This document shows, in pieces, positions 4,573-19,949 of a stretch of 20,000 nucleotides of DNA. A program made the translations under genes and the position numbers. The notes below the pieces were generated by a model. The model had not been told where the DNA came from. It saw nothing but the letters and a program-made list of their open reading frames with translations, and made no database searches. Location: the IMG/VR virus record IMGVR_UViG_3300025418_001062; one strand, given 5' to 3'. The first letter of the stretch is position 1, and each line of letters starts with the position of its first letter. This DNA comes from an uncultured virus (IMG/VR IMGVR_UViG_3300025418_001062). Taxonomy: Duplodnaviria; Heunggongvirae; Uroviricota; Caudoviricetes.

Positions 4573-4629
4573 TTAGAAGTATTCGTCACACAGGTCACAA
4601 ACACCTACAAACTCTGAGCCGTCGCTCAT
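4573..4629 (-). CDS. possible CxxC micropeptide (18 aa)
   Basis: coupled to stop of 4629-4826; MSDGSEFVGVCDLCDEYF. Confidence 0.3.
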   Translation of the reverse strand: MSDGSEFVGVCDLCDEYF

Positions 4630-4826
4630 CATTCTGACTCCTCCACGAAGTAGTCATCGTACCAGCCATCAACCCATTCGGGGCTGTCTTCGTCTGGTTC
4701 GGGCTTTGCGACGTAGATAAAGTCCCACGCTTCCTCAAAACTGTTGAACGATAGGTTCGGGTCATTGCTCCCGAACTCTGTCCACAGTCGGTTGCCCGCC
4801 CAGTCTTTGATAATCCACTTACTCAT
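4629..4826 (-). CDS. acidic hypothetical protein
   Basis: GGAGG RBS, TGATG coupling, 65 aa. Confidence 0.75.
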   Translation of the reverse strand: MSKWIIKDWAGNRLWTEFGSNDPNLSFNSFEEAWDFIYVAKPEPDEDSPEWVDGWYDDYFVEESE

Positions 4827-5050
4827 CAGTAGCCTCCTTCTTCGTTTAGTTTGCGGATGTAATGCAGTAGCGCCGAATAAAGGTTGGCGTCGTATTCCCT
4901 AAATCCCTGGTCAGGGATACGAAGATACTCTTGTAGGTCTTCATCCCAGATACAGCCGTCAGGAAACTGTGCTTCCAAGACGTCGGTGTCGCAAAAGAAC
5001 CCACGGTCTTTGTGGTAGCCCACCACAAAATAGTGCGTGTAGGTACTCAT
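4826..5050 (-). CDS. hypothetical protein
   Basis: coupled ORF, 74 aa, GAGG RBS. Confidence 0.75.
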   Translation of the reverse strand: MSTYTHYFVVGYHKDRGFFCDTDVLEAQFPDGCIWDEDLQEYLRIPDQGFREYDANLYSALLHYIRKLNEEGGY

Positions 5051-5217
5051 TACAGCACCTCGACGTGGAAGTCATTGGGGTTTGCGCCCGTCTGGTCGTT
5101 GAAAAGCCCGTCAGCGTACATCAGCGCCTCATCAGCGTTTTCAGCGATAACGCTTACGGTGTAGGTGTAAGAGACCTCCATGTATGGCGTCCCGTCGGTG
5201 TCATAGTTTACAGTCAT
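5050..5217 (-). CDS. acidic hypothetical protein (55 aa)
   Basis: Not in ORF track; TAATG overlaps at both ends; MTVNYDTDGTPYMEVSYTYTVSVIAENADEAL... Confidence 0.7.
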   Translation of the reverse strand: MTVNYDTDGTPYMEVSYTYTVSVIAENADEALMYADGLFNDQTGANPNDFHVEVL

Positions 5218-5435
5218 TATTGTTCTCCTCCGTAGGTGTAGTCGGTGTCAATAGCCCAGTTGTAGGGGTTGAAACCGTATTCTTGAAAAATCTTTCGTGA
5301 TGCAAGTTCCAGCAGAACGTCTTCAATGTCCGCTTCCAGCCGGTCGTCGTCGGGCGTTCTGTCGTAGTAGACAACAGTGTTTAGAACCATGTGGTCGCAA
5401 GTAATGCTTACGAAGTAAACGTGGTGCTCTCCCAT
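5217..5435 (-). CDS. acidic hypothetical protein
   Basis: AAAGGA RBS, first gene after promoter 5481-5509. Confidence 0.8.
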   Translation of the reverse strand: MGEHHVYFVSITCDHMVLNTVVYYDRTPDDDRLEADIEDVLLELASRKIFQEYGFNPYNWAIDTDYTYGGEQ

Positions 5436-5480
5436 TTTGTATCCTTTCTGTCTGTCACCACCGCTTTTCGGTGATGAACC

Positions 5481-5509
5481 ATTGTACCACGGGTTTTTTG
5501 CTTTGTCAA
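5481..5509 (-). promoter_or_regulatory. cassette promoter + AAAAG-loop leader hairpin
   Basis: TTGACA-17-TACAAT, TG extension; hairpin CATCACCG-AAAAG-CGGTGGTG. Confidence 0.85.
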
Positions 5510-5512
5510 GTC

Positions 5513-5992
5513 CTAGTGGTGAAAATCTACCAAGACTAAGAATTGACGAGTGGGGTCTGTTTCCATGCGCTCACGGAGATACTTGAAGTCTTCGCACCAT
5601 TCTTTCAGGTCGTAGAAGTAGGCATCGTGCTTTCCGTTGCCCTCGGCAATGGCAATAGCCTGACGGAGATGGTAAAAATCAAGACTGCGTCCGGCATCAC
5701 GGCCATCAAAGTTGCGCACTTCTTCAATGATTGCCTCGGTGTCAATGTTGCTCAACAGAAACTTGATTTCATTCACTCGGTTGAGACGGGCACGCTCCAA
5801 AAAGTCCTCAAACTTTGTGGGGTCGTCTGCGTAGCAGTGAACCTCGCCCTCGTCCTCCCAGCGCCCCCCGATTTCTGCCCAGTCGCTCCACGGAAAAACG
5901 GGGTTGTCATCGTGCGTCAAAGCAATGTCTACTTGAGAGATTGCGTCTTCGGCGTTGTCAGCCTCTACTGCGATAAAATGTAATACGTGCAT
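5513..5992 (-). CDS. hypothetical phage protein (159 aa)
   Basis: start reassigned to ATG 5992 (AAAGGAG RBS); WSDWAEIGGRW motif and C-terminal LVDFH. Confidence 0.85.
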   Translation of the reverse strand: MHVLHFIAVEADNAEDAISQVDIALTHDDNPVFPWSDWAEIGGRWEDEGEVHCYADDPTKFEDFLERARLNRVNEIKFLLSNIDTEAIIEEVRNFDGRDAGRSLDFYHLRQAIAIAEGNGKHDAYFYDLKEWCEDFKYLRERMETDPTRQFLVLVDFHH

Positions 5993-6034
5993 TATGCTCC
6001 TTTGTCTCTGCACCGGCTTTTCCGGTACTCATCT

Positions 6035-6063
6035 ATTATAACAGGGGTTTTTTACTTTGTCAA
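6035..6063 (-). promoter_or_regulatory. cassette promoter (perfect consensus) + leader hairpin
   Basis: TTGACA-17-TATAAT, TG extension; hairpin ACCGG-AAAAG-CCGGT. Confidence 0.9.
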
Positions 6064-6064
6064 G

Positions 6065-6229
6065 TCAGTGGTCAAAGAAATCGAAAACTTTGTCCGTGAC
6101 TGCTACGTTCCACTGTAGCATCTCTACTAGCAAAGAATACAGCAGTTCGTTGGCTTCCGTCTCCTCGCCGTGAAACTTGCGCTCGGCGTATAGGATAAGG
6201 GCGCTCGACGCCTCGGTTGCGCTCCTCAC
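6065..6229 (-). CDS. hypothetical protein (54 aa)
   Basis: Not in ORF track; GTGA overlap, GGAGG RBS; MRSATEASSALILYAERKFHGEETEANELLYSLL... Confidence 0.6.
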   Translation of the reverse strand: MRSATEASSALILYAERKFHGEETEANELLYSLLVEMLQWNVAVTDKVFDFFDH

Positions 6230-6396
6230 TCTAAGCCCTCCCAGTCGTCGCTCGTCGCCCGTAGGTAAAACTCGGCGGGGTCTTCATCAAAAAGGTGCAG
6301 TTGCGCCTCGCTAAAATCCTCGGTGTCGAAGATAAAGAGGTCGTAATCCTCGGCGCTACCATAGTTGCCGTCAAAGCCTACATACATTTTTGCCAT
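6226..6396 (-). CDS. highly acidic small protein (56 aa)
   Basis: Not in ORF track; AAGGAG RBS; 16 D/E vs 2 K/R. Confidence 0.7.
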   Translation of the reverse strand: MAKMYVGFDGNYGSAEDYDLFIFDTEDFSEAQLHLFDEDPAEFYLRATSDDWEGLE

Positions 6397-6542
6397 TATT
6401 CGCTCTCCTTTAGAACGCCGTCAATGAATGAATAGTTGGTGTAAATGATGACCTGACCCTCGTTGTCAAGGTCAATGTCGCAATTCGGGAGTGCTTTCTG
6501 CACCGCCTCTACTAACTGCTCAATAGTGGTGTAGTTGGTCAT
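6396..6542 (-). CDS. small hypothetical protein (48 aa)
   Basis: Not in ORF track; GGAG RBS, TAATG coupling; MTNYTTIEQLVEAVQKALPNCDIDLDNEGQVIIYTN... Confidence 0.7.
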   Translation of the reverse strand: MTNYTTIEQLVEAVQKALPNCDIDLDNEGQVIIYTNYSFIDGVLKESE

Positions 6543-6748
6543 TAGTTCTCCTCCACGTCAATGCTGTATACTGATGCAAAACCCTTGTAGTCTTCGTAGC
6601 GCCAGCCCTCGGCTTCCGCTTCCGCTTCGCCGTCGGCATCTACGTCAAACCGGTACTCAACCATTACCGTCACGCTGTACGACGTAGGGCTGTCATCTTC
6701 AGTATCCTGAACCTCGGTGCTTACAACTTTCTTAGTGGCTGTCGCCAT
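6542..6748 (-). CDS. acidic hypothetical protein (68 aa)
   Basis: start reassigned to ATG 6748 (MATATKK; AAAGGA RBS). Confidence 0.75.
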   Translation of the reverse strand: MATATKKVVSTEVQDTEDDSPTSYSVTVMVEYRFDVDADGEAEAEAEGWRYEDYKGFASVYSIDVEEN

Positions 6749-6794
6749 TGGTAATCCTTTCGGTAAATTGCCGAGACGTTTTCTCGACCCAAAC

Positions 6795-6823
6795 AGTATG
6801 ACACACGCCGACGTCAATGTCAA
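6795..6823 (-). promoter_or_regulatory. cassette promoter + leader hairpin
   Basis: TTGACA-17-CATACT, TG extension; hairpin CGAGA-AAACG-TCTCG. Confidence 0.8.
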
Positions 6824-6920
6824 ATCATTTTCCCCATTTTTTTTTGAAAAACTCTTCGCGTACGCGATTCGCGTACATGCCCACGCGATACGCGATTTCG
6901 CGTATGCGCACACGCGATAG

Positions 6921-6955
6921 GGGGAGATTGCCCCCAAACTTCGGGGGCAACCTCC
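6921..6955 (-). terminator. GC-rich hairpin after ORF 6955-7227
   Basis: GGAGGTTGCCCCC...GGGGGCAATCTCC stem directly after stop; no clear U tract. Confidence 0.6.
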
Positions 6956-7227
6956 TAGTCCAATTCTTCCAACTCTTCGTCCTCGACCACAGTTTCCTCG
7001 CTCCACGGCTTGACTGTGATGTAGTAGCCCATTCTGTTCACAATGTGGTAGCCGTTCACAATGGTTCCGTCGTCCAGTTCCGTCCACACCATCTCGACGG
7101 GCTGACCCTGAACAAACTCCAGTTCCTCGCCGTAGGTCTCGAACATCTTGACAAAGTAGTATGCCCTAGATTGGAAATGATTATCTAGGGGCTGATACTG
7201 GTTCCACCAATCCTCGAACTTCATCAT
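6955..7227 (-). CDS. hypothetical phage protein
   Basis: ATGA-coupled; FETYGEELEFV...VWT...GYHIVNRMGYYITVKPW. Confidence 0.85.
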   Translation of the reverse strand: MMKFEDWWNQYQPLDNHFQSRAYYFVKMFETYGEELEFVQGQPVEMVWTELDDGTIVNGYHIVNRMGYYITVKPWSEETVVEDEELEELD

Positions 7228-7610
7228 ACCGCTACCACGGGGAGAAAGTCAAGGACAAACTCGTGAAACGACTTAGGCTCATAGACGGGTCGCCAGTGAC
7301 TGTCCGCAAAGTCTTCGCTGTAGACACGCTCATAGATAGAAACTTCTTCCTTTACGTGGTCTACTTCTACCAAGCGCCAAGCGTCGCCAGCCTCACGGGT
7401 ACTGATGCCGTAAGAAAGGTTGCTCTCGTCGCCTCCGAGGAGCGTCTGAAAGATGATACGATTGAGGTAGTCCTCATCGCCCCACCGGTCACGCCCCTTG
7501 TCCAGCCCCTGCGCCACAATTTCGGGCAGTCGGTAAGCAGTCCAATGAGTGTAAAAGTAAATCGGCTGTCCGTATTCACTAACTAACTTGATGTTTCCAC
7601 GGTCTCCCAC
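7224..7610 (-). CDS. hypothetical phage protein (128 aa)
   Basis: start reassigned to GTG 7610 (AAGGGA RBS); GDRGNI...IYFYTHW...RWGDEDYLNRIIF. Confidence 0.85.
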   Translation of the reverse strand: MGDRGNIKLVSEYGQPIYFYTHWTAYRLPEIVAQGLDKGRDRWGDEDYLNRIIFQTLLGGDESNLSYGISTREAGDAWRLVEVDHVKEEVSIYERVYSEDFADSHWRPVYEPKSFHEFVLDFLPVVAV

Positions 7611-7655
7611 GGTAATCCCTTCTGATAAAAGCACCGGCTTTTCCGGTACTCAACC

Positions 7656-7684
7656 ATTGTATCAGGGGTTTGTGTCCTTGTCAA
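7656..7684 (-). promoter_or_regulatory. cassette promoter + leader hairpin (overlaps 3' end of upstream ORF)
   Basis: TTGACA-17-TACAAT, TG extension; hairpin ACCGG-AAAAG-CCGGT. Confidence 0.85.
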
Positions 7685-7952
7685 GCCAAGTCCAACCTTT
7701 TTCTTCAAGGTCTTCTCGGAACTCCTGCGCCGCCTCTGGTGTGGTGAACGCTGTGGCCTTAGTTAGTGCAACTGCGTCTGGGCGAATACCCTTGTCACGC
7801 TGTAGCAGTCGCATAACCTGCGACTTCGGATTAGGCTTCTCTACGGCTTCCTGCAACTCTGTCCAAGTCACCTCGTCACTGCGCACAAGCAAAAGCCCGT
7901 CAGCGATGCCTATAAGCCCGTCTGCCGTCACGAAATACAAGTTCTGTGTCAT
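7662..7952 (-). CDS. hypothetical protein
   Basis: ATG 7952 with GGAAGG RBS; only an extended -10 (TGTCATACT, 7992-8000) upstream. Confidence 0.7.
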   Translation of the reverse strand: MTQNLYFVTADGLIGIADGLLLVRSDEVTWTELQEAVEKPNPKSQVMRLLQRDKGIRPDAVALTKATAFTTPEAAQEFREDLEEKGWTWLDKDTNP

Positions 7953-8011
7953 CTGATACCTTCCCATAAATAACCCGTCTGAGGGGCTTACAGTATGACA
8001 CGTAATTATTC

Positions 8012-8040
8012 TTGACTTTCACTCACGCATACGCTATAAT
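8012..8040 (+). promoter_or_regulatory. ORF-less divergent promoter
   Basis: TTGACT-17-TATAAT pointing into the CGCG block. Confidence 0.65.
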
Positions 8041-8171
8041 TAGTCGTGCGATAATTTTTCCCCATCTTTTTCTCAAAAACTGGCTACTTTCGCCCGTAGT
8101 TTCTTTAGAAATCCTCTCGCGTACGCGATTCGCGTACCCGCGCCTACGCGATTCGCGTATACACGCACGCG

Positions 8172-8221
8172 AAAAAAATGGCGGAGCCGGAGCGAACACA
8201 CGTTCGCCCCGACCCCCTGCC
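8172..8221 (-). terminator. terminator of ardC containing LexA-box-like palindrome
   Basis: hairpin + T7 on - strand; CGAAC-ACAC-GTTCG at 8193-8206. Confidence 0.65.
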
Positions 8222-8222
8222 A

Positions 8223-9113
8223 CTACTCGGCTTCCACCGTCTCCGTCTCTGCGCCGGTGATGAAGTTCGTAGCCTTCTGCGCCCGACCCACTGCCTTGAC
8301 TAGCATCTTCGGGTCGTTCTTCAGAACCTTCAGCCAAGACTTGATGTAAGCGGTGCTGTTGTCCAATGTCTCGGGCAGTACACCGGTCTCACTGCACAAA
8401 AACGCACTCGTGAACTCTGCCACCAATTCCTCTTCGCTGTAGAGTTCGCTACCGAAGTAGTGGTTTTCCACGATGCCGTCACGGTTCAGGCGTGACTTGT
8501 GACCGGTTGAGTGACCCATCTCGTGAAACGCCGTTGCATAGAACGAACTATCGCTCACGAAGTTGGACTGCTGGGGAAGTTGGATACCGTCTCGACTAGG
8601 TGAGTAGTAGGCTCGGTTTCCACCAAAGGCTAGGCTCGGTGCATTGTCACGGGCGAAGTAGTTGTCCATAATCTTCTGGGCGCTCTCGACGACCTCTACG
8701 GAATTGCGCGCAGTGGGCTTTTCGTAGGCTGGCGCTTTCCCGTCTTCCCACGTCGCTTGCTGGGCGTTGAACACGGTGAAGTAGCGCATCACCACTGCCT
8801 TCTTCTTGTCCCCGTCAGCGTTTTCGGTCTCAAACTGCTTCCACAGGACTACGGGAGTGCCCCTCTCGCCCTTCGTGACCACGCCTCCACGCTCGGTAAT
8901 CTGCTTGAACGTTCCCCACCACGGGCTTTCGTAGCCCTTGTCCATAGCCTCAAACGTCAAGAGCATAAAGTTCATACCCTTGTAGGTCTTGCCACTGCTC
9001 ATTGACTTAGGCTTGTATCCGTAGGCTATCCATTCCTTGCGCCACGGTGCGACGTTGTTTTCCAGTTGCTTGATGATAGTCTGGGCGACTACCTCGTAAG
9101 CGGTCTTGCTCAT
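8223..9113 (-). CDS. ardC: antirestriction protein ArdC (ssDNA-binding N-domain + zincin-like metallopeptidase domain)
   Basis: IIKQLE...PWRKEW, YKGMN, W.TFKQ..G..V.KGERG, YFTVFN..Q, AYYSP..D.I.LP, FHEMGHSTGHKSRLNR (HExxH), YSEEELVAE, YIKSWL. Confidence 0.93.
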   Translation of the reverse strand: MSKTAYEVVAQTIIKQLENNVAPWRKEWIAYGYKPKSMSSGKTYKGMNFMLLTFEAMDKGYESPWWGTFKQITERGGVVTKGERGTPVVLWKQFETENADGDKKKAVVMRYFTVFNAQQATWEDGKAPAYEKPTARNSVEVVESAQKIMDNYFARDNAPSLAFGGNRAYYSPSRDGIQLPQQSNFVSDSSFYATAFHEMGHSTGHKSRLNRDGIVENHYFGSELYSEEELVAEFTSAFLCSETGVLPETLDNSTAYIKSWLKVLKNDPKMLVKAVGRAQKATNFITGAETETVEAE

Positions 9114-9158
9114 TTGCTTGCTCCTTTGATTAGTTGCTCCGCATTTCGGAACGTATCC

Positions 9159-9187
9159 ATTATGACAGGTCTCGGCGTCGCTGTCAA
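9159..9187 (-). promoter_or_regulatory. ardC promoter + leader hairpin
   Basis: TTGACA-17-CATAAT, TG extension; hairpin TCCG-AAATG-CGGA; AAAGGAG RBS. Confidence 0.85.
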
Positions 9188-9234
9188 GTCAAAACGTATC
9201 TTTTTTTTAGATAGGGACTATCTGCCTTTGATAC

Positions 9235-9263
9235 TTGACTTTTGGTGTGGCCTATGGTATAAT
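9235..9263 (+). promoter_or_regulatory. ORF-less divergent promoter
   Basis: TTGACT-17-TATAAT with TG extension. Confidence 0.7.
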
Positions 9264-9388
9264 TTCCCCATACGTTTTCTAAAAATCCTCGGGTCGCTTC
9301 GCGTGCATACGTACGCGATACGCGATTCGCGTGCCTACATACGCGAAATCCCCCAATTGGGGGCAGGCTTGCGCCCACCCCCAACCGA

Positions 9389-9784
9389 TTAGAACGGGTC
9401 GCTGGTCACGCCCCAGTCGCAGAGGATACTGATAATCTGATAACTGTCGGTAGGCTCATCACCCCACGACATACCGCCGGTAATCACATACTCCTTACCG
9501 CCCAAGTTGAGAGACGCAACGTCACGAACCCAGCCCCTACCGAAGACTGACCTCACCTGCTCCAAGAGTTTGTTCAGAACGGTCTGGCGTTCTTCAGCGT
9601 CTTCTTTTTCATCACCGGTCTGCTCAACCCAGACACCGAAATCTTCCAACTCCTCCCAACGCTCAACGAACATTTCAGAGAAACGCTCGCAAACCTTCTC
9701 AGCCAATTCTGTGCTACTCTGCAGAGAGTAGCCCGTCGCATCAAACGGCCACTCACACACTGCGTAAGTAAAATCTGCACCCAT
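9389..9784 (-). CDS. acidic hypothetical protein
   Basis: AAAGGAG RBS; MGADF...ITGGMSWGDEPTD. Confidence 0.85.
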   Translation of the reverse strand: MGADFTYAVCEWPFDATGYSLQSSTELAEKVCERFSEMFVERWEELEDFGVWVEQTGDEKEDAEERQTVLNKLLEQVRSVFGRGWVRDVASLNLGGKEYVITGGMSWGDEPTDSYQIISILCDWGVTSDPF

Positions 9785-9826
9785 TGTAATCTCCTTTTCT
9801 CTGGTAGCACTTTTTGCTACTCAACC

Positions 9827-9855
9827 ATTATACAGACACCCTGACTAAATTGCAA
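9827..9855 (-). promoter_or_regulatory. cassette promoter + leader hairpin
   Basis: TTGCAA-17-TATAAT; hairpin GTAGCA-AAAAG-TGCTAC. Confidence 0.8.
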
Positions 9856-9962
9856 GTCATCTTTTCTAAAATCTCCTCGCGTACGCGATAACGTGCCTAT
9901 ACGCGAACTAAACCCAACGGGTCATCGGGGGCTGGGCTTTCGCCCAACCCCCTACCCGTTGC

Positions 9963-10370
9963 CTAAGCGAGACCCCTCAGGTTGTCTAGGGCGTTCTCCA
10001 AGTCCGCAAGCGAACTCTCAAGGTTGCTACTTGCATCTTCGGCGCTACTCTCAACGCTGTCGGCGCTCCGCTTCAGGTCATAGATTTCAGACTGCAAATC
10101 ATCAATAGCCGCTTTGCTATCCTCGGAGTTAGAGATAGCCGTCTCCACCAAATCAACCAAAGTATCAAAGTCTTCACGCTGAACGACGATAACGTCATCA
10201 CCCATCAGGGACTTAGCCAACTCAATAATCTGACCCTTGACATTTGAGAGGTATGCTTCACGCTCGGAGAGGTCATTCTCCTTAGCGGTCAATGTCCGGT
10301 ATCGGGCTTCCAACGCCAACTCGGTGCTGGTCTTTGAGGTCTCCTCAACCCCGTTGATGAACTGCTCCAT
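9963..10370 (-). CDS. acidic coiled-coil protein
   Basis: AAAGGA RBS; heptad-like helical sequence throughout. Confidence 0.85.
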   Translation of the reverse strand: MEQFINGVEETSKTSTELALEARYRTLTAKENDLSEREAYLSNVKGQIIELAKSLMGDDVIVVQREDFDTLVDLVETAISNSEDSKAAIDDLQSEIYDLKRSADSVESSAEDASSNLESSLADLENALDNLRGLA

Positions 10371-10418
10371 TGCTGTATTCCTTTCGGTAATTTGTCTCGG
10401 CGTTTCCTCGACCTAACT

Positions 10419-14135: not shown

Positions 14136-14205
14136 GTTCATTTTCCAAAAACTTCCTCGGGCACGCGATTCGCGTAAGTGCGCACGCGAACCCCCCTTCC
14201 TGCCT

Positions 14206-14460
14206 TTACCAGCGCAGGGCGTTGAGGTGATAGCGGTTCCCGCCGAGACGGTCTCCACACAAGTCACAAGGGGCGTAGGAGAATGAGGGGCTATCGTTAT
14301 ACTCCACGCTGAATGAGGTGCGAGGCCACTCGTCAAGGCCGGCCAAAATACGTTCTTCGTCAGTAGGGTCTAAGTCCATCTCACGGACACCGTACTGGCT
14401 CGCATAAACGCAGTCGGGGCAAACAAGAAGGGTGATTACTTCATAAACTTCGTTAGGCAT
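14206..14460 (-). CDS. Zn-binding hypothetical protein
   Basis: CPDC...FSYAPCDLCGDRLGGNRY; GAGG RBS. Confidence 0.85.
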   Translation of the reverse strand: MPNEVYEVITLLVCPDCVYASQYGVREMDLDPTDEERILAGLDEWPRTSFSVEYNDSPSFSYAPCDLCGDRLGGNRYHLNALRW

Positions 14461-14500
14461 AATTTCCTCTTTTCTCTTAGGGCGTTTTCCCTATGCAACC

Positions 14501-14529
14501 ATTGTACAGGCTCCCCCCAACTTTGTCAA
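14501..14529 (-). promoter_or_regulatory. cassette promoter + leader hairpin
   Basis: TTGACA-17-TACAAT; hairpin TAGGG-AAAACG-CCCTA. Confidence 0.8.
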
Positions 14530-14663
14530 GTCGGGCACGCGAGAATAATTTCCCCCCATTTGCTTTGTAAAATCTCCAAATCTCGCGCGCTGTACGCGTT
14601 CGCGTGCGAGCGTACGCGATTCGCGTGCGCGGGCGTGCGTGCGCATACGCGAGGCTTCGACGT

Positions 14664-14706
14664 AAAAAAAGTCGGGGCAGTCAGTCCTGAGACCGACCAC
14701 CCCGAC
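14664..14706 (-). terminator. intrinsic terminator
   Basis: GTCGGGG...CCCCGAC stem followed by T7 on - strand. Confidence 0.75.
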
Positions 14707-14714
14707 CCCTTTGC

Positions 14715-14909
14715 CTAGTAGATAGAAACGAGGTGATGCACAGCGAGGTAATCGTTGTTGTTGTTGTCGTTGGGGGCGAGACCAAGACCTTCCAGCAGGG
14801 CGTTGAGGTGCTTTGCCAATTCGGTTGCTTCTGCTTCCGGATAGTCACCGGCGAGGTAGATGACTTCGTCGTTGTTATCCAGCACCGCTACACAAAACAG
14901 TTTTTCCAT
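14715..14909 (-). CDS. small hypothetical protein
   Basis: AAAGG RBS, own promoter and terminator. Confidence 0.8.
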   Translation of the reverse strand: MEKLFCVAVLDNNDEVIYLAGDYPEAEATELAKHLNALLEGLGLAPNDNNNNDYLAVHHLVSIY

Positions 14910-14946
14910 TGTTGCCTTTCGTTGCCGGTCATTTGCCGACCCTAAA

Positions 14947-14976
14947 ATTGTGCCATACGGAGAGGGTCGGCGTCAA
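14947..14976 (-). promoter_or_regulatory. cassette promoter + leader hairpin
   Basis: TTGACG-18-CACAAT, TG extension; hairpin GTCGGC-AAATG-ACCGGC. Confidence 0.65.
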
Positions 14977-15117
14977 TTCCATTTGAGAGATAGCCACTAT
15001 CTGTTTTCTAGATAACCCAAAACTCTCCCGCACGCGATTCGCGTAAACACGTACGCGAGGTATTGTCCCTGAAATCTCGCGTGCATACATACGCGAAGAG
15101 AGGGGGGAGACCGAGGG

Positions 15118-15131
15118 CGAACACTTGTTCG
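15118..15131. promoter_or_regulatory. LexA-box-like palindrome inside terminator hairpin
   Basis: CGAAC-ACTT-GTTCG. Confidence 0.5.
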
Positions 15132-15147
15132 CCCTCAGCCCCTCTGC

Positions 15148-15348
15148 CTAGATAACCTTGATGAACTTGCGGTTGTCAAAGGCGTTTTGCGCCGACGTGA
15201 TGAACGCCTGCGCTTGGTCGGCGTGGTCGAAGAAGAACGTCACGCCTGCGAACGATACCGTCACGCTCCGTGTCAAATCGTTGCAGACAACTTCCGTAAT
15301 CTCCTCTTGCGAAGGGAACACATCTACGCTGTGAATGTTGCTAATCAT
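15148..15348 (-). CDS. small hypothetical protein (66 aa)
   Basis: start reassigned to ATG 15348 (MISNIHSVDVF). Confidence 0.75.
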   Translation of the reverse strand: MISNIHSVDVFPSQEEITEVVCNDLTRSVTVSFAGVTFFFDHADQAQAFITSAQNAFDNRKFIKVI

Positions 15349-15387
15349 TGCTGTCTCTTTTCCTACCGGCTTTTCCGGTATGTATCC

Positions 15388-15415
15388 ATTGTAGCAGGTT
15401 TTCGGCACGATGCAA
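15388..15415 (-). promoter_or_regulatory. cassette promoter + leader hairpin
   Basis: TTGCAT-16-TACAAT, TG extension; hairpin TACCGG-AAAAG-CCGGTA. Confidence 0.7.
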
Positions 15416-15535
15416 CTCAAAAAGACAGATACCCCTTATCTTTTTTTGAGATACCCCAAAGCCTCGGGTGCGCGATTCGCGTGCGCACATACGCGAATCG
15501 TGTGCGCCCGTGCACGTACGCGAGGGGGGTACTGC

Positions 15536-15730
15536 TTATTTTTTGGGTAGCCAGACCCCCTCGCCCTCGCTGTCGCACTCCTCTTCGAAGCATGAGAACC
15601 ACACGGGGCAGTCCTCACCCTCTTCGGGAATGAACTCCCCTAGACCCATCTCCCCGCATTCCATGCACCGCACACGGTACTCGTCAAAGGTTGAGTTGTA
15701 GGTGATGGTGTAAGAGGTGAACTTTGCCAT
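15536..15730 (-). CDS. acidic Cys-containing small protein
   Basis: AAAGGAG RBS; CMEC...C...C...C. Confidence 0.8.
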   Translation of the reverse strand: MAKFTSYTITYNSTFDEYRVRCMECGEMGLGEFIPEEGEDCPVWFSCFEEECDSEGEGVWLPKK

Positions 15731-15770
15731 TGGTGGCTCCTTTTGTTTGGGGCGTTTCCCCGTTGGAACC

Positions 15771-15800
15771 AGTGTAGCACGTCAATCCGGCAATTGCCAA
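15771..15800 (-). promoter_or_regulatory. cassette promoter + leader hairpin
   Basis: TTGGCA-18-TACACT, TG extension; hairpin GGGG-AAACG-CCCC. Confidence 0.65.
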
Positions 15801-15924
15801 TCAAAAGGGCAGATACCGCCCATCTATTTTGTAGATACCTCGAGGTCTTCGCGTGAGCGGGCGGGCGGGCACGTACGCGAATCGCGTGCGCGGGTAGGCG
15901 CACACACGCGAGAGGGGCGATAGC

Positions 15925-15957
15925 AAAAATCGGGGGCAGTCCGAAGACTACCCCCGA
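15925..15957 (-). terminator. intrinsic terminator with cUUCGg loop
   Basis: TCGGGGGTAGTCTTCGGACTGCCCCCGA + T5 on - strand. Confidence 0.8.
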
Positions 15958-15969
15958 CCCTACTGTTTA

Positions 15970-16065
15970 TTAGTCTTCGTTGTATCCGCCAACGTCGTAG
16001 CGGTCAGCGAGACCGCTAATCCAAGAGGTCACACCGTAGTCTTCGTAGTTGTCAAAGTCTTCCAT
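15970..16065 (-). CDS. acidic micropeptide (31 aa)
   Basis: Not in ORF track; AAAGGAG RBS, own promoter and terminator; MEDFDNYEDYGVTSWISGLADRYDVGGYNED. Confidence 0.7.
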   Translation of the reverse strand: MEDFDNYEDYGVTSWISGLADRYDVGGYNED

Positions 16066-16104
16066 TTTGTTGCTCCTTTGTCGAGGCGTTTCCCCAACAC
16101 TTCC

Positions 16105-16133
16105 AAGATACCAGCCTTTTTGCACTTTGTCAA
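16105..16133 (-). promoter_or_regulatory. cassette promoter + leader hairpin
   Basis: TTGACA-17-TATCTT, TG extension; hairpin GGGG-AAACG-CCTC. Confidence 0.8.
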
Positions 16134-16300
16134 GTCAATTTGTCGTGCACGCGAGAATAATTTTTCCCCTTTGGTTTTGTAAAATCTCCTCATCGTGTGC
16201 GTTGCGTACGCGATTGCGCGGGTGCGCACGCGATTGTGCGGGTGTGCGCACACGGTCGCGTATGTGCGGGTGCGCGCGGGCACGCGAAGCGGTGTTGTGT

Positions 16301-16338
16301 AAAAAATCGGGGAGCCGAGCCGAAGCCCGACCCCCCGA
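16301..16338 (-). terminator. intrinsic terminator
   Basis: imperfect GC stem with CTTCGG loop + T6 on - strand. Confidence 0.7.
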
Positions 16339-16342
16339 CCCC

Positions 16343-16579
16343 CTACAGACTTGCGAAGCCCTGACGAACGTAGTTCATCTGCTTTGAGGTGGTGCGAGAG
16401 TACTTTTGCTCATTGACCCACTTTGCGCCGGTCTTAGGGCAGTATGAGGCCATCAGTGTCCAGTAGGAATACACGGCATACACGCCGTTTTCCCACGTCC
16501 CCCTAAGGTTTGACCCCTGGAACTCCTTGAGGTTTGCAATCGCCTTTGCGCTTGCGTTGTTTGCAATGTGCTTTGCCAT
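16343..16579 (-). CDS. small basic phage protein (78 aa)
   Basis: start reassigned to ATG 16579 (AAAGGAG RBS); VYSYWT...KYSRTTSKQ motif. Confidence 0.85.
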   Translation of the reverse strand: MAKHIANNASAKAIANLKEFQGSNLRGTWENGVYAVYSYWTLMASYCPKTGAKWVNEQKYSRTTSKQMNYVRQGFASL

Positions 16580-16617
16580 TTTGGCTCCTTTTGTTGAGGC
16601 GTTTCCCCGACCTAAAC

Positions 16618-16646
16618 AGTATGCCACAGGTCGGCGAGAATTGCAA
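16618..16646 (-). promoter_or_regulatory. cassette promoter + leader hairpin
   Basis: TTGCAA-17-CATACT, TG extension; hairpin GTCGGGG-AAACG-CCTCAAC. Confidence 0.75.
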
Positions 16647-16805
16647 ATCGTTTTGAGAGATAGACACTATCTCCCCAATAGATACCTAAAAACCTAGAGG
16701 TCTTCGCGTACGCGGGGGCGTGCGTGCGTACGCGATTGCGGGTATGCGCGTGTTCGCGTGCGCGTGTGTATGCGCATACGCGAATGGGTGGGGTTGGTCA
16801 GGGAG

Positions 16806-16819
16806 CGAACACCTGTTCG
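16806..16819. promoter_or_regulatory. LexA-box-like palindrome inside terminator hairpin
   Basis: CGAAC-ACCT-GTTCG within GGTCAGGGAG...CTCCCTGACC stem. Confidence 0.5.
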
Positions 16820-16836
16820 CTCCCTGACCTGTTCGG

Positions 16837-17001
16837 CTAGTAGCCGAGGAAGGTGGCGAGTTCTCCCCACGTCACGAAGCGGGGCGTTCCGTCCTCTTTC
16901 CACAGCGAGACGTGATGCACGCCGTAGCGGGCGAGAATGGCACGAGTGCGCTCAGGGGTAAGAACAGTCTCACGACTACTTGGGATAAGGTTGTTTGCCA
17001 T
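16837..17001 (-). CDS. small hypothetical protein (54 aa)
   Basis: start reassigned to ATG 17001 (AAAGGAG RBS). Confidence 0.8.
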   Translation of the reverse strand: MANNLIPSSRETVLTPERTRAILARYGVHHVSLWKEDGTPRFVTWGELATFLGY

Positions 17002-17039
17002 TTTGGCTCCTTTTGTTGGGGCTTTTCCCCGACCTAAAC

Positions 17040-17068
17040 AGTATGCCACACATCTAGGCGGATTGCAA
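17040..17068 (-). promoter_or_regulatory. cassette promoter + leader hairpin
   Basis: TTGCAA-17-CATACT, TG extension; hairpin GTCGGGG-AAAAG-CCCCAAC. Confidence 0.75.
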
Positions 17069-17160
17069 ATCATTTTAGCAGATAGGTATTATCTCCCCTA
17101 GAGATACCCAAAAATCTCCAAAGTCTTCGCGTGTGTGCATACGCGATTGCGCCCGCGTGC

Positions 17161-17244
17161 GTGTTCGCGTGCGTGCGTGTGCGCCCGCGTGTTCGCGTGC
17201 GTGCGTGTGCGCCCGCGTGTTCGCGTGCGTGCGTGTGCGCCCGC
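17161..17244 (+). repeat. perfect tandem repeat 3 x 28 bp
   Basis: gtgttcgcgtgcgtgcgtgtgcgcccgc x3. Confidence 0.9.
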
Positions 17245-17267
17245 GTACGCGAGGCAATGCTAGGGCG

Positions 17268-17299
17268 AAAATCGGGGGCAGTCCGAAGACCACCCCCGA
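17268..17299 (-). terminator. intrinsic terminator with cUUCGg loop
   Basis: near-identical to 15925-15957. Confidence 0.75.
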
Positions 17300-17309
17300 C
17301 CCCCCCCGA

Positions 17310-17540
17310 CTAAAAACGCTCGGTGAAGATTGCCCACCAAGTAAAGATTGAGTAGGGCAGTGAGGCCGCCAGTCCCACGAAGCACACAAGGCGAGACAGG
17401 AACGAAGCCGGCGGTGTCGAAACGAACAGGTAAGCAGTGAAGAAGCACATTACCACAAGGAACGAAAAGCCGATAAGGCAAAAGGCGTAGAGCAACTTAG
17501 ATACGATGCGCTTACGCTTACGGCGGGAGATGCGTGACAT
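17310..17540 (-). CDS. small 2-TM membrane protein with basic N-terminus
   Basis: MSRISRRKRKR + two hydrophobic segments; own promoter and terminator. Confidence 0.75.
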   Translation of the reverse strand: MSRISRRKRKRIVSKLLYAFCLIGFSFLVVMCFFTAYLFVSTPPASFLSRLVCFVGLAASLPYSIFTWWAIFTERF

Positions 17541-17580
17541 TGGAACTCTCTTTCTTGAGGGGCGTTTCCCCTACCTAAAT

Positions 17581-17609
17581 AGATTAGCACAAGGCAAGGA
17601 CAAAAGCAA
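17581..17609 (-). promoter_or_regulatory. cassette promoter + leader hairpin
   Basis: TTGCTT-17-TAATCT, TG extension; hairpin AGGGG-AAACG-CCCCT. Confidence 0.7.
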
Positions 17610-17747
17610 ATCACTTTCACAGATAGCCATTATCTTCCCCAGAGATACCCTAAAACTCCTCGCGTGCGCCCGTGTGCGTGCGGGCACGCGATTGCGCAGG
17701 TGTTCGCGTGCGCGGGCGTGCCTACATACGCGAAGCAATGTTATGCG

Positions 17748-17782
17748 AAAAAAAATCGGGGGGCCAAACTTCAGCCCCCCGA
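17748..17782 (-). terminator. intrinsic terminator
   Basis: TCGGGGGG...CCCCCCGA stem + T8 on - strand. Confidence 0.75.
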
Positions 17783-17790
17783 CCTTCTCC

Positions 17791-17949
17791 CTAGCCGATG
17801 ACAACCTGGACGCTCTCGGAAGCGCCGTTGGCCTTCAGTTCTTGCAACCAGGTCAGCCGACCGGCCTCGGCCTCGGCGGTGTTAGCAAAACCGGAACGGA
17901 TACCATAGCAAGTACCGTCAAGGACAAGGAACAAAGCAATGCGGGGCAT
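17791..17949 (-). CDS. small hypothetical protein (52 aa)
   Basis: Not in ORF track; MPRIALFLVLDGTCYGIRSGFANTAEAEAGRL...; own promoter and terminator. Confidence 0.7.
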   Translation of the reverse strand: MPRIALFLVLDGTCYGIRSGFANTAEAEAGRLTWLQELKANGASESVQVVIG

Positions 17950-17990
17950 TGGAACTCTCTTTCTTATCGGGGCGTTTCCCTGATGTATCT

Positions 17991-18019
17991 AGATTAGCAC
18001 AGGGCACTAGCAAAGTCAA
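17991..18019 (-). promoter_or_regulatory. cassette promoter + leader hairpin
   Basis: TTGACT-17-TAATCT, TG extension; hairpin ATCAGGG-AAACG-CCCCGAT. Confidence 0.75.
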
Positions 18020-18173
18020 ATCACTTTTACAGATAGTCCCAATCTTTTTTTTAGATACCCCAAAACCCTTCGCGTCTGCCCGTGCGCGCGTGCGTACGCG
18101 ATTGCGTAGGCGTGTGTGCGCTCGCTATCGCGTGCGCGTGTGTGCGTGCGCGTACGCGATGGGTCTCTATCAG

Positions 18174-18208
18174 AAAAATCGGGGGCTACCCCTAAGGGCA
18201 ACCCCCGA
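18174..18208 (-). terminator. intrinsic terminator
   Basis: TCGGGGG...CCCCCGA stem + T5 on - strand. Confidence 0.75.
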
Positions 18209-18217
18209 CTTTTCCGA

Positions 18218-18373
18218 CTAGGCGAAGACTACGCTGGCGCGTGGCTTGGTGCTGATGCCTGCGTACTGCTCGTTGAGTTCGCTTGCGCGCTCAAGAGCGG
18301 CCTCAAGGTCATCATAGATGCCGGCGGAGATAAAGCCGGCGGAGTTGCTAAAAACAACGGAGATGCGGAACAT
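18218..18373 (-). CDS. small hypothetical protein (51 aa)
   Basis: Not in ORF track; MFRISVVFSNSAGFISAGIYDDLEAALERASELNEQY... Confidence 0.7.
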   Translation of the reverse strand: MFRISVVFSNSAGFISAGIYDDLEAALERASELNEQYAGISTKPRASVVFA

Positions 18374-18412
18374 ACTGCCTACTTTCTATAAGGGCGTTTC
18401 CCTTATGTATCC

Positions 18413-18441
18413 ACTATACCAGCCCAACGGCAAAACGTGAC
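18413..18441 (-). promoter_or_regulatory. cassette promoter (extended -10, weak -35) + leader hairpin
   Basis: TGG-TATAGT; hairpin ATAAGGG-AAACG-CCCTTAT. Confidence 0.6.
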
Positions 18442-18601
18442 ACAAAAAAACAGATAGGTCACATCACTAAAAGAGATGGCACTTTCTCTGAAAATCCTCG
18501 CGTCTGCCCGTGTGCGTGCGCGTACGCGATAGGGTGCGCCCCCACACCCCCGCGCAATCGTGTGCGCCCGCGTGTGCGCGCCTACGCGAAGCAGTGGCGA
18601 G

Positions 18602-18638
18602 AAAAAAATCGGGGGCAACTCCTAAGAGCGACCCCCGA
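18602..18638 (-). terminator. intrinsic terminator
   Basis: TCGGGGG...CCCCCGA stem + T7 on - strand. Confidence 0.75.
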
Positions 18639-18642
18639 CCCT

Positions 18643-18780
18643 TTACAAAATCTCAACCACAACTCGGTCTTTCGGGTAGAACGTGCGCGCGCTCTCGAAG
18701 AAAAACTGAACTTCCTGCTTGTCCTGAAGCGGGAACGTCTTCTGTGCGCCATTCTCGCTAGTCACGATTGCTTGGAACAT
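18643..18780 (-). CDS. small hypothetical protein (45 aa)
   Basis: Not in ORF track; AAAGGGG RBS; MFQAIVTSENGAQKTFPLQDKQEVQFFFESARTFYPKDRVVVEIL. Confidence 0.7.
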   Translation of the reverse strand: MFQAIVTSENGAQKTFPLQDKQEVQFFFESARTFYPKDRVVVEIL

Positions 18781-18822
18781 TGGAACCCCTTTGATAACCG
18801 CCGGTCATTTACCGACCCTAAA

Positions 18823-18851
18823 AGTATCTCACACATTTCGGAAAAAGTCAA
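18823..18851 (-). promoter_or_regulatory. cassette promoter + leader hairpin
   Basis: TTGACT-17-GATACT, TG extension; hairpin GTCGGT-AAATG-ACCGGC. Confidence 0.7.
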
Positions 18852-19001
18852 GTCGTGCACGCGATAAATTTTCCCCAACGCTTTTTGGAAAATTGCCACT
18901 TCGCGTGCGTCACATACGCGATTTGTGCCCGCACCCGCGCAATCGCGTGCGCCCGCACACGCACACACACGCGAGGCAAAATCGGAGAAAAAATCAGGGA
19001 G

Positions 19002-19015
19002 CGAACACACGTTCG
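19002..19015. promoter_or_regulatory. LexA-box-like palindrome inside terminator hairpin
   Basis: CGAAC-ACAC-GTTCG; stem followed by T6 on - strand. Confidence 0.5.
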
Positions 19016-19031
19016 CCCCCCGACCTTTCTC

Positions 19032-19208
19032 CTACTTCACGGACATAATGCTCGGGTGCGTGAGGTAGTCAGCGAACTGGTCAATCTGGTAGAGCGCCTC
19101 GTTATCTACGGGGTCAAGGTTCCCGTTCGTGACGTAGTGCATACCTGCCCAGTGAAATGCGCCACGAACCAAAGCAAACTGCTCGGGGGTGAGGGTGAGG
19201 GTAATCAT
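19032..19208 (-). CDS. small hypothetical protein (58 aa)
   Basis: start reassigned to ATG 19208 (AAAGG RBS). Confidence 0.8.
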   Translation of the reverse strand: MITLTLTPEQFALVRGAFHWAGMHYVTNGNLDPVDNEALYQIDQFADYLTHPSIMSVK

Positions 19209-19246
19209 AACTGCCTTTCGTTTCGGGGCATTTCCCCGATACATCA

Positions 19247-19275
19247 AAGATACCACCCCCAGCCGGTAATTGCAA
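19247..19275 (-). promoter_or_regulatory. cassette promoter + leader hairpin
   Basis: TTGCAA-17-TATCTT, TG extension; hairpin TCGGGG-AAATG-CCCCGA. Confidence 0.75.
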
Positions 19276-19949
19276 ATCATTTTGAGAGATAGTTGCTATC
19301 ACTCCCAGAGATACCCCCAAATCCCCAAGCGGTTCGCGTGCCCGCGCACGCACGCGCGTACGCGAAGGATAAAATTTCCCACACTTGTTTTGAAAAACTC
19401 CTCTTGCATGCCCGCAAAGAACGCGATTCGCGTCATATATTGCGCACGCGAAAAAAAATGAACGCCCGCGCGTACGCGAAAAAAAAGATTGCCCGCACTC
19501 GCGCAAAAAAAACTCGCGTGCGATACGCGCCCCCGCACATACGCAAAAAAATCTTGCGCGTCACATACGCCCGCGTAATACGCCCCCGCACCTTGCGTGA
19601 AAATCCTCGCGTGCCACACGCGCACACGCGTTAGAACGCCCGCACACGCCCCTAAAACGCCCTCACGCGCCCGCGACACGCGCACGCGATAAATCGCCCC
19701 CGCACTCGCGTAAAACTCCTCACACGCCCGCACAGGGGTTTATTTTCCCCACATTGTTTCTAAAATCTCCTCGCGTCTGCACGCACGCGCACGCGAAAAA
19801 AACCCGCGCACGCGCGCAAAAAAAACGCGCGCCCGCACACGCCCGTAAATCGCGTAGGCGCACACGCACGCACGCACGCGATACGCACACACGCCCGCAC
19901 ACGCACGCACGTTCGCGTAGGCGCACGCCCGCGCACACGCGAAGGGACT

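Follow-up and report, generated by a model that had tools for sequence, protein, structure and literature searches.

An array of separately promoted gene cassettes with composite shared spacers in an uncultured freshwater phage, and its likeness to mobile regulatory cassettes

A host-takeover module of phage SPO1 was reportedly described by Stewart and colleagues in 1998. According to passages of PMC6873191, this module comprises about 26 small early genes within about 12 kb, with promoters and ribosome-binding sites (RBS) typical of high expression, and the targets of its products are mostly unknown. Passages of Arbiol et al. (2010, PMC2839356) describe, in T4-type phages, the promoter early stem-loops (PeSLs), in which repeated σ70-like early promoters and G/C stem-loop terminators precede ORFans in hyperplastic regions. 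For the indels that separate RB49 from phi1, recombination between PeSLs was proposed there as the cause, minicircles were detected and a comparison with integrons was made; parts of Comeau et al. (2014, PMC4122927) report the extension of this work within the T4-like phages. The passages of PMC2839356 also refer to the lambdoid morons of Hendrix et al. (2000), single genes with their own promoter and terminator that are independently expressed. In plasmids, leading regions are portrayed in parts of Samuel et al. (2024, PMC11541004) as anti-defense islands in which ArdA/ArdC-type genes lie near small unknown genes. Here we describe an array of 26 promoter units in the DNA of the uncultured virus IMGVR_UViG_3300025418_001062 (Caudoviricetes) and compare it with these systems. 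The window is the whole stretch that was analyzed (20,000 nucleotides), and the array occupies the - strand of its positions 4573-20000.

The array is probably a hyperplastic early (host-takeover/anti-defense) region of a freshwater tailed phage, in which autonomous cassettes are shuffled via recombination between their spacers. The argument is built on the anatomy of the array, motif statistics, covariation in a hairpin, purifying selection on the cargo genes, and cassette polymorphisms with their junctions. In the proposed mechanism, each cassette would be fired by a near-consensus host-type σ70 promoter with an A-rich upstream stretch; the transcript would begin within a few bases of an AAA-N-G stem-loop, a strong Shine-Dalgarno sequence would follow 10-15 nt on, and a GC-rich hairpin would end each unit. 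One dimeric regulator, bound to the operators of about half of the units, would control all of these simultaneously, including the antisense promoter where present. Recombination between spacers would delete, insert, replace and reorder cassettes and, since all spacers are made of common elements, cassette exchange would leave expression intact. The exchange would probably be the work of RecA, the RecE-like exonuclease and the Erf-like annealase that the phage itself encodes.

Relatives were sought by pattern-based scans, and the metagenome relatives discussed below are among the matches listed. The nearest record, IMGVR_UViG_3300025400_000022 (G002, the same as G001), is about 65% complete and 99% identical to the window over window positions 1-9386. 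L115 is a Joint Genome Institute (JGI) contig that is 95-99% identical to the window, L120 is 81% identical, and L041 is an IMG/VR contig with a GC content of 0.45. X7, X12, X15 and X22 are freshwater sequencing runs read through assembled Logan contigs. The array is present in 24 freshwater DNA runs, none of which is on record as RNA.

Anatomy of the array

Reading the - strand through and extracting every spacer recovered 26 units in 4573-20000, in agreement with the original prediction, made from the letters alone, of about 26 co-oriented promoters. The full spacer module is present in 22 of them (cassettes 2 to 22 and unit 24 of Table 1, with starts at 18780 to 7967 and at 6748), with a spacer length of 135-341 bp. 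Its elements follow in a set order: the stop codon of the previous open reading frame (ORF), a GC-rich hairpin, a block of TCGCGT/ACGCGA hexamers beginning TTCGCGT, an A/T-rich piece (GAGGAGATTTTACAAA...TGGGGAAAAATTAT), often an AGATAG-N3-CTATCT palindrome, a promoter (-35, 17 bp, TG and -10), a short stem-loop, an A-rich linker, an AAAGGAG-type RBS and ATG. The first cassette (start 19208) is preceded by a non-coding leader of about 700 bp. Three units are bare, consisting of promoter, hairpin and RBS (promoters at 7684, 6063 and 5509), and these drive small operons. Spacers make up 42% of the array (6,452 spacer bases vs 8,976 coding bases); they are about 60-90% identical to one another and form subfamilies. 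Single-gene cassettes encode 31-93 aa to the right of 13.2 kb and 101-296 aa in the middle of the array, which bears out the rightward shortening of the cargo noted originally. The further claim of one frame shared by nearly every small ORF stands for the 22 full modules; it does not stand for the terminator, canonical in about half of the spacers, or for the operator, found in strict form in 13 of the 25 units examined. Small spacer ORFs starting ATGGGG were considered as genes and rejected, as they are not conserved from module to module. A tRNA search found none, and an Rfam search returned nothing near any gathering score.

The promoter elements are of the σ70 type (TTGACA or TTGCAA, 17 bp, TG and -10) and are accompanied by an A-rich upstream stretch; they are presumably read by the host RNA polymerase. 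Promoter-like sites number 40 in a generic scan, where shuffled sequences give 14.1 ± 4.2. A start-codon-anchored script gave the correct position for 24 of the 26 promoters; these match the consensus at 8-12 of 12 positions, and 22 of them have TG. In 23 of these 24 the distance from the end of the -10 hexamer to ATG is 36-48 nt. The promoter of 17540 was placed by hand, and that of 7967 is atypical. CGCGAATCGCG occurs in 17 copies where 0.03 are expected, 16 of them on the - strand. Hairpin promoters of the N4 type, for a virion RNA polymerase, were considered and rejected: the 57-kb relative has no giant polymerase ORF, and a perfect σ70 promoter lies 6 nt upstream of each hairpin.

The pattern AGATA-N{4,7}-TATCT is matched 11 times (0.01 expected), with five intervening nucleotides in all 11 cases, and about three units besides those with the strict operator carry a degenerate form recognized by eye. 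If the first base of the -35 hexamer is counted as -35, the palindrome is centered at -53/-54 in nine units and at -64/-65 in four. Antisense promoters, absent from the original prediction, are found on the + strand in six modules with 10-12 of 12 matches (Table 1), and the operator is centered at -54 from each of the five that abut it. To judge from this arrangement, a dimer on the operator would sit on the UP-element zone of both back-to-back promoters, and the operator position (-54/-64) would suit a single dimeric regulator for all operator units and the adjoining antisense promoters. In L120 the antisense promoter upstream of the ArdC gene is kept as TTGACA-17-TATAAT despite the drift around it. 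The six antisense promoters face the hexamer block and the terminator of the preceding cassette. The predicted antisense transcripts would carry the complement of GAGGAG (CUCCUC), and they match no Rfam family.

In the 25 aligned 5' hairpins, pairing holds in 91.3% of the cells, while shuffles give 53.3% and a slid partner 33-47%; the first figure is somewhat inflated because the script chose the best-pairing loop position. All six stem pairs covary, with changes on both sides, and in the loop A9, A10, A11 and G13 are invariant (AAA-N-G). Stem variation around an invariant loop speaks for an element that is single-stranded (RNA) and lies at the extreme 5' end of the transcript, and not for a duplex operator. 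We read the stem-loop as a 5' stabilizer that may double as a protein handle; a handle for antitermination of the lambda N/boxB type is possible, and neither a boxA nor an N-like gene was identified. The RBS of most cassettes include many GAAAGG or AAAGGAG sequences, which pair best with a 16S 3' end extended to CCUCCUUUCU. This RBS type and the frequent TG-extended -10 suggest a non-enterobacterial host.

At the level of sequence, 20 of the 22 spacers read have a GC hairpin after the stop codon. A T-run comes directly after the hairpin in 10 of them and is displaced in three, the hairpin stands alone in seven, and two have no hairpin; the terminator that had been claimed for nearly every cassette is present in its canonical form in about half of the spacers. 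A T7-style, polymerase-driven entry of the genome was considered, and the terminators after each unit speak against it. Five terminator hairpins (8193-8206, 13875-13888, 15118-15131, 16806-16819 and 19002-19015) contain a perfect CGAAC-N4-GTTCG, which we take to be a LexA (Cheo) box of the Gram-positive type. GAACATTTGTTC, at 18353-18364 of G002, immediately precedes the phage recA there, and it also lies upstream of the first array gene in L115 (1081-1092) and in L041 (4898-4909). These LexA-type boxes may hint at SOS control and at the type of host.

The hexamer blocks are exclusive to the array. CGCG is found seven times in 8,976 coding bases, where a Markov model expects about 49, against 171 times in 6,452 spacer bases, and TCGCGT/ACGCGA are absent from coding DNA against 117 occurrences in the spacers. 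In G002 (56.9 kb) all 37 hexamers lie within the first 7.6 kb and none in the remaining 49 kb. TCGCGT comes first in all 22 blocks and ACGCGA last in 16. Distances from the start of TCGCGT to the start of ACGCGA peak at 14 (14 cases) and 26 (13 cases), and those from ACGCGA to TCGCGT at 7 (15 cases), which defines a unit of the form TCGCGT-N8 or N20-ACGCGA, with a single A joining units. Blocks contain 1-4 units, and the block of cassette 6 (17127-17252) has three tandem units of about 40 bp. Same-sense hexamers recur every 21 or 33 bp, a spacing that places the sites roughly on one face of the helix. The alternation of purines and pyrimidines in the blocks is 0.756, where shuffles give 0.50 ± 0.012, and alternating runs reach 30 nt. 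The block may be read as a phased protein-binding array or as a topological insulator or element. When the double-unit pattern was sought in one genome each of 185,579 species, only eight single matches were found, all in high-GC genomes and judged to be due to chance; a literature search for the hexamers returned unrelated primer-type matches only.

Cargo proteins and carrier phage

The cargo had been described as mutually unrelated, and no paralog pair at E ≤ 0.01 was found among its 34 proteins. Their pI is below 5 in 27 cases; four cargos (17540, 17001, 16579 and 13710) are basic. Only two of them, ArdC and an ArdA-like protein, have a Pfam match above the curated cut-off; the other 32 have none. 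The ArdC protein (296 aa) combines ArdcN (PF08401, 1.6e-32) with a C-terminal zincin peptidase (PF18818, 4e-37) that carries HEMGH (HExxH), and matches phrog_7245 (9.4e-79). The ArdA-like protein (104 aa, net charge -20) matches PF07275 (2.9e-12) over profile positions 74-154 of 155, that is, the C-terminal half. The ArdA/ArdC identification made in the original prediction is thereby upheld, on both domains for ArdC and on the C-terminal half of the profile for the ArdA-like protein. The dN/dS ratio is 0.10-0.51 in six of six ortholog pairs, which indicates that the cargo ORFs are real genes under purifying selection.

A megablast of the array against phage GenBank gave no match, and the tblastn matches of ArdC were all below 60% identity. 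For the basic 54-aa cargo (17001), a viral scan found no homologs and a protein search found only four clusters, at 70-91% identity. Recombinase or integrase families were found in none of the 34 cargos, the 14 + strand ORFs of the window, two ORFs from relatives or the large ORFs of G002, a scan that left out the small ORFs of G002. GATC and AGCT are both absent from the 20-kb window and from G002 12001-56895 (its 45-kb core), where 65 and 140, respectively, would be expected; GATC is likewise absent from L041 and L115. Such an absence resembles a strong avoidance of restriction sites, in keeping with ArdA/ArdC among the cargo.

The structural genes of G002 encode a tail sheath, a tape measure, collagen-like fibers and a capsid protein with a weak SU10_MCP match and no Gp23 match. 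Its replication and recombination genes encode a DnaB-like helicase, a replication initiator, a bacterial-type RecA (PF00154, 1.5e-111), a RecE-like exonuclease and an Erf-like annealase. Judged by these genes, the carrier is a tailed phage that is not T4-like. In L115, divergent genes lie upstream of the array. The genes at the head of the array show no detectable homology between L115 and L041, and PHROG scans of the flank genes of both contigs gave nothing informative. The depth of the Logan contigs is flat across the array and, with one depth figure per contig, is a weak hint on the genome termini.

Cassette differences among relatives and their explanation

The original prediction had proposed to look for variation of order and content among relatives. 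Both vary, most of the mapped breakpoints lie within shared spacers, and fixed order and content were not seen. Within DNA that matches the window at 97-99% identity, one cassette is gained, one is lost and one ORF is replaced. As a gain, an extra cassette with a 143-aa ORF, present in G002 and also in L115, separates the -10 of the 11112 unit (promoter 11153-11181) from its hairpin; copies of the promoter core stand on either side of the cassette as a direct repeat of 35 bp with two mismatches. As a loss, window positions 9355-9918 (564 bp, with the 131-aa cassette 20) are absent from G002, the joint falling at the first TCGCGT of the block, and the same loss recurs with an identical joint in X15 and X22 (45-nt sides). 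As a replacement, the 93-aa ORF at 13253-13534 gives way to an unrelated 58-aa ORF in L115, X7, X15 and X22. The copy number of the 40-bp unit also varies, X15 and X22 having one unit fewer in the cassette 6 block (joint 17174>17215, 255-nt sides); X22 shows a 58-bp skip, and the N-terminus of the cassette 19 ORF (135 aa) has diverged in G002.

Eighteen cargos of L115 stand in window order. L120 keeps the order 10370-9784-ArdC-7967, with dS values of 0.10, 1.02 and 1.04 for the last three; ten-fold dS contrasts between neighboring cassettes (0.10 vs 1.02; 0.39 vs 2.34) point to a mosaic history. The order in the more distant contig L062 is 16579-like, new 58 aa, new 66 aa, 17001-like (91%), new 57 aa, 14460-like (68%) and 14909-like (56%), with two neighbor pairs swapped relative to the window and three cargos without a tblastn match in it. 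The 14460 homolog of L062 stands behind an operator-type module, whereas 14460 itself stands behind an operator-less one. In L041 there are hexamer blocks with CGCGAATCGCGTA, TTGACA promoters, hairpins with an AAACG loop in three of four units, and small ORFs, without the AGATA operator; its proteins show no detectable similarity to those of the window, L115 or G002.

The joints used either extend for 30 nt or more on each side (30 nt in X7, 45-255 nt in the runs that give the main support) or are also present in IMG/VR or JGI contigs. Joints with sides below 30 nt (such as 6853>13179 and 5490>11130) and the backward joint 19980>13117 were excluded, as they connect repeated pieces of the module and could be cross-links made in assembly. 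Many loose contig ends at module positions (such as 11153, 13225 and 15364) hint at further variants. Contigs of X7 and X12 run leftwards from 8052 into sequence like window positions ~4233-4262, via a common AATTTTTCCCCA piece; this joint is either a 3.8-kb deletion variant without units 22-26 or an assembly cross-link.

The junctions lie at differing points of the module, a pattern more in line with exchange driven by homology than with site-specific recombination. A true phage integron, with the TCGCGT...ACGCGA blocks as attC-like sites of a site-specific recombinase, would account for the variable-length inverted-repeat bracket that, like attC, follows each ORF, for the joint of the 564-bp deletion at the first hexamer, and for hexamers that are exclusive to the array and yet common to the otherwise unrelated L041. 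However, the junctions are scattered over the promoter core, the block start, and the start codon and terminator; no recombinase family turned up in the ORF sets scanned; each cassette has its own promoter, unlike those of integrons; and the blocks have weak folding z-scores. We hold such an integron to be very improbable. The blocks might also be selfish or host-type palindromes that resemble the repetitive extragenic palindromic (REP) sequences and bacterial interspersed mosaic elements (BIMEs), with the parallels to REP/BIME and gyrase that this implies, acting mainly on mRNA 3' ends or, as a Z-DNA sink or gyrase site, on DNA topology, and not as signals of the phage for regulation or recombination. 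Their alternating orientations (> < > <), the fixed spacings of 14, 26 and 7 bp, the purine-pyrimidine alternation and their position after gene ends would fit. But the species-wide search, with its few chance-like matches, yields no host genome with such repeats and no clue to a host or prophage and, lying downstream of the terminator hairpins, the blocks would rarely be in mRNA, which speaks against a role at mRNA 3' ends; we regard this explanation as unlikely. A similarly small chance is given to a reading in which the blocks are a dedicated binding array, whose bound phage or host factor would insulate the cassettes and steer exchange to the spacers, in a recombinase-poor 'phage integron' with spacers that move between unrelated phages of one host.

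If the array were an ordinary early region, its similar spacers would be the residue of serial tandem duplication, with no role in rearrangement, and the indels would be random illegitimate events. Many strong promoters and small ORFans are common in phage early regions, the 26-gene SPO1 module portrayed in passages of PMC6873191 being one example, and the spacer subfamilies could reflect duplication. Nevertheless, the hexamers, the operator half-sites, the hairpin loop and the -35/-10 hexamers are fixed while the remainder drifts to 60-70% identity. Two of the three cassette-scale differences have their joints within shared elements, and a direct repeat flanks one of the two; the hairpin stems covary; and the grammar is retained in L041, without shared proteins. 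We regard duplication without shuffling as improbable.

Several points weigh against an early region shuffled via its spacers. The replacement of the 93-aa ORF ends at the start codon and terminator, outside the conserved spacer core. The longest junction repeat, 35 bp with two mismatches, is short for RecA-type exchange, and identity between spacers is no more than about 60-90%. The population joints were read from assembled contigs, in which repeats can give rise to false joins. Terminators are not enriched in a generic scan (25 vs 22.7 expected), and nine of the 22 spacers have no T-run. In the 11 of 22 blocks that were folded as single strands, z is -0.5 to -3.0 against shuffles, modest values that lend no support to a defined block structure. 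Anti-defense annotation is limited to two of the 34 cargos, and the early timing and promoter use are predictions from the sequence.

Further features lie at the right end of the array and to its left (Table 1 for the former). The leader (19373-19949) is conserved in L115 and has a similar counterpart at L041 5680-6100, and the four DnaA-box-like repeats beside it recur in the same arrangement at L115 1967-2008. The two DnaA-like boxes of the cassette 16 spacer (- strand) read TGTGGATAA and TGTGGAAAA, again with an 11-bp period; both sets could be an origin, a DnaA sink or iterons. To the left, where + and - strand genes converge, a 17-bp inverted repeat (4469-4485/4540-4556) surrounds three CTGTAGTGCCC-type repeats at 4469-4556, and two overlapping opposed promoters lie nearby at 4164-4205. 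Among the + strand genes left of the array, 2136-2405 encodes an 89-aa Cpn10/GroES-like protein (PF00166, 1.1e-12).

Table 1. Units of the array and adjacent features in window coordinates. The start codon of a - strand ORF is at its higher coordinate; promoters marked + are antisense
Feature	Position	Strand	Content
DnaA-box-like repeats	19950..20000	-	four copies of TGTGGAAAA (19958-19999), 11-bp period, just upstream of array leader
Non-coding leader	19373..19949	-	CGCG-rich segments alternating with T-runs, degenerate module pieces (GAGGAGATTTTAGAAA..TGGGGAAAA); repeat family D12
Cassette 1	19032..19372	-	hexamer block, degenerate operator, promoter 19247-19275, 5' hairpin 19221-19241, ORF 19032-19208 (58 aa)
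Cassette 2	18643..19031	-	terminator, block, promoter 18823-18851, hairpin, ORF 18643-18780 (45 aa)
Cassette 3	18218..18642	-	promoter 18413-18441, ORF 18218-18373 (51 aa)
Cassette 4	17791..18217	-	promoter 17991-18019, ORF 17791-17949 (52 aa)
Cassette 5	17310..17790	-	operator, promoter 17581-17609, ORF 17310-17540 (76 aa, basic and hydrophobic)
Cassette 6	16837..17309	-	block with 40-bp tandem unit, operator, promoter 17040-17068, ORF 16837-17001 (54 aa, best-conserved cargo)
Cassette 7	16343..16836	-	operator, promoter 16618-16646, ORF 16343-16579 (78 aa; phrog_5643)
Cassette 8	15970..16342	-	no operator, promoter 16105-16133, ORF 15970-16065 (31 aa)
Cassette 9	15536..15969	-	operator, promoter 15771-15800, ORF 15536-15730 (64 aa)
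Cassette 10	15148..15535	-	no terminator hairpin, operator, promoter 15388-15416, ORF 15148-15348 (66 aa)
Cassette 11	14715..15147	-	operator, promoter 14947-14976, ORF 14715-14909 (64 aa)
Cassette 12	14206..14714	-	no operator, promoter 14501-14529, ORF 14206-14460 (84 aa)
Cassette 13	13903..14205	-	shortest spacer (135 bp), promoter 14107-14135, ORF 13903-14070 (55 aa)
Cassette 14, two genes	13253..13902	-	operator, promoter 13748-13776, ORFs 13534-13710 (58 aa) and 13253-13534 (93 aa)
Cassette 15	12631..13252	-	+ promoter 13092-13121, operator, promoter 13026-13054, ORF 12631-12987 (118 aa; phrog_2355)
Cassette 16	11994..12630	-	two DnaA-like boxes 12571-12590, + promoter 12428-12456, operator, promoter 12351-12379, ArdA-like ORF 11994-12308 (104 aa)
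Cassette 17	11454..11993	-	no operator, promoter 11798-11826, ORF 11454-11759 (101 aa)
Cassette 18	10654..11453	-	+ promoter 11229-11257, operator, promoter 11153-11181, ORF 10654-11112 (152 aa, 10 Cys)
Cassette 19	9963..10653	-	+ promoter 10495-10523, operator, promoter 10419-10447, ORF 9963-10370 (135 aa, weak coiled-coil-type matches)
Cassette 20	9389..9962	-	promoter 9827-9855, ORF 9389-9784 (131 aa)
Cassette 21	8223..9388	-	+ promoter 9235-9263, operator, promoter 9159-9187, ArdC ORF 8223-9113 (296 aa; ArdcN and zincin peptidase, HEMGH)
Cassette 22	7662..8222	-	full block, + promoter 8012-8040, atypical - promoter, ORF 7662-7967 (101 aa)
Unit 23	6955..7684	-	bare promoter 7656-7684 and hairpin, ORFs 7224-7634 (up to 136 aa; phrog_31860) and 6955-7227 (90 aa)
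Unit 24	6065..6954	-	full module 6749-6954 (promoter 6795-6823), four overlapping ORFs (68, 48, 56, 54 aa)
Unit 25	5513..6064	-	bare consensus promoter 6035-6063 (12/12) and hairpin, ORF 5513-5992 (159 aa)
Unit 26	4573..5512	-	bare promoter 5481-5509 and hairpin, five overlapping ORFs (72, 55, 74, 65, 19 aa)

The array among known systems

The PeSL idea, that modular phage evolution has regulatory spacers as its linkers, comes from T4-type coliphages; the array carries it over to an uncultured freshwater phage unrelated to them, and adds evidence from natural populations, as cassette-minus and cassette-swapped forms are found in separate metagenome runs. Its about 34 small, mostly acidic, predicted early proteins beside ArdA/ArdC are a good hunting ground for anti-defense and host-takeover functions, and its spacers would offer ready-made insulated expression parts. 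Three questions are raised: what binds the hexamer blocks, what binds the -54 operator and what reads the fixed hairpin loop.

The original prediction had called the array integron-like, without an integrase. The analogy is fair, tandem short unrelated ORFs with repeated elements between them and a content that varies among relatives being common to both; it is not new, as passages of PMC2839356 draw it for PeSLs, and the junctions are not site-specific. Unlike integrons, the array has a promoter in each cassette, blocks of weak folding, junctions at no fixed point and no IntI among the ORFs scanned. The blocks also seem to lack the core sites of attC, for which no dedicated search was made.

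In predicted function the closest analogue is the SPO1 module, which, in the passages of PMC6873191, likewise has about 26 small early genes with strong promoters and RBS. It differs from the array in its position in the terminal region of the genome and in its organization in operons, and those passages do not describe composite spacers or shuffling for SPO1. Morons, as portrayed in the passages of PMC2839356, are solitary and without conserved flanks, whereas 22 units of the array stand co-oriented in tandem with a common flank grammar. Plasmid leading regions, in the parts of PMC11541004 that describe them, share with the array the presence of ArdA/ArdC beside many small unknown genes; they enter the cell as single-stranded DNA and use single-stranded promoters, unlike this double-stranded DNA phage with duplex promoters of the σ70 type.

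The cassette concept itself is already published, in the form of the PeSL 'mobile regulatory cassettes'. As far as the passages of PMC2839356 describe them, PeSLs and the spacers of the array have in common a strong σ70-like promoter, preceded by an AT-rich stretch, together with a G/C-rich stem-loop, and both stand before ORFans where the genome is plastic. In both systems, phages that are nearly identical differ by indels and replacements whose ends lie in these motifs; both have no dedicated recombinase (for the array, among the ORFs scanned), and both invite the analogy with integrons. Set against the same passages, the carrier of the array is not of the T4 type (weak SU10_MCP match, DnaB-type helicase, bacterial-type RecA and Erf), its cassettes form one contiguous array of 26 units, and its spacers add to the compact PeSL motif a hexamer block, an operator, antisense promoters and a separate transcribed 5' hairpin. 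What is new here is therefore a non-T4 phage with spacers of 135-341 bp, hexamer blocks exclusive to the array, an operator at about -54 of divergent promoter pairs and a conserved 5' loop.

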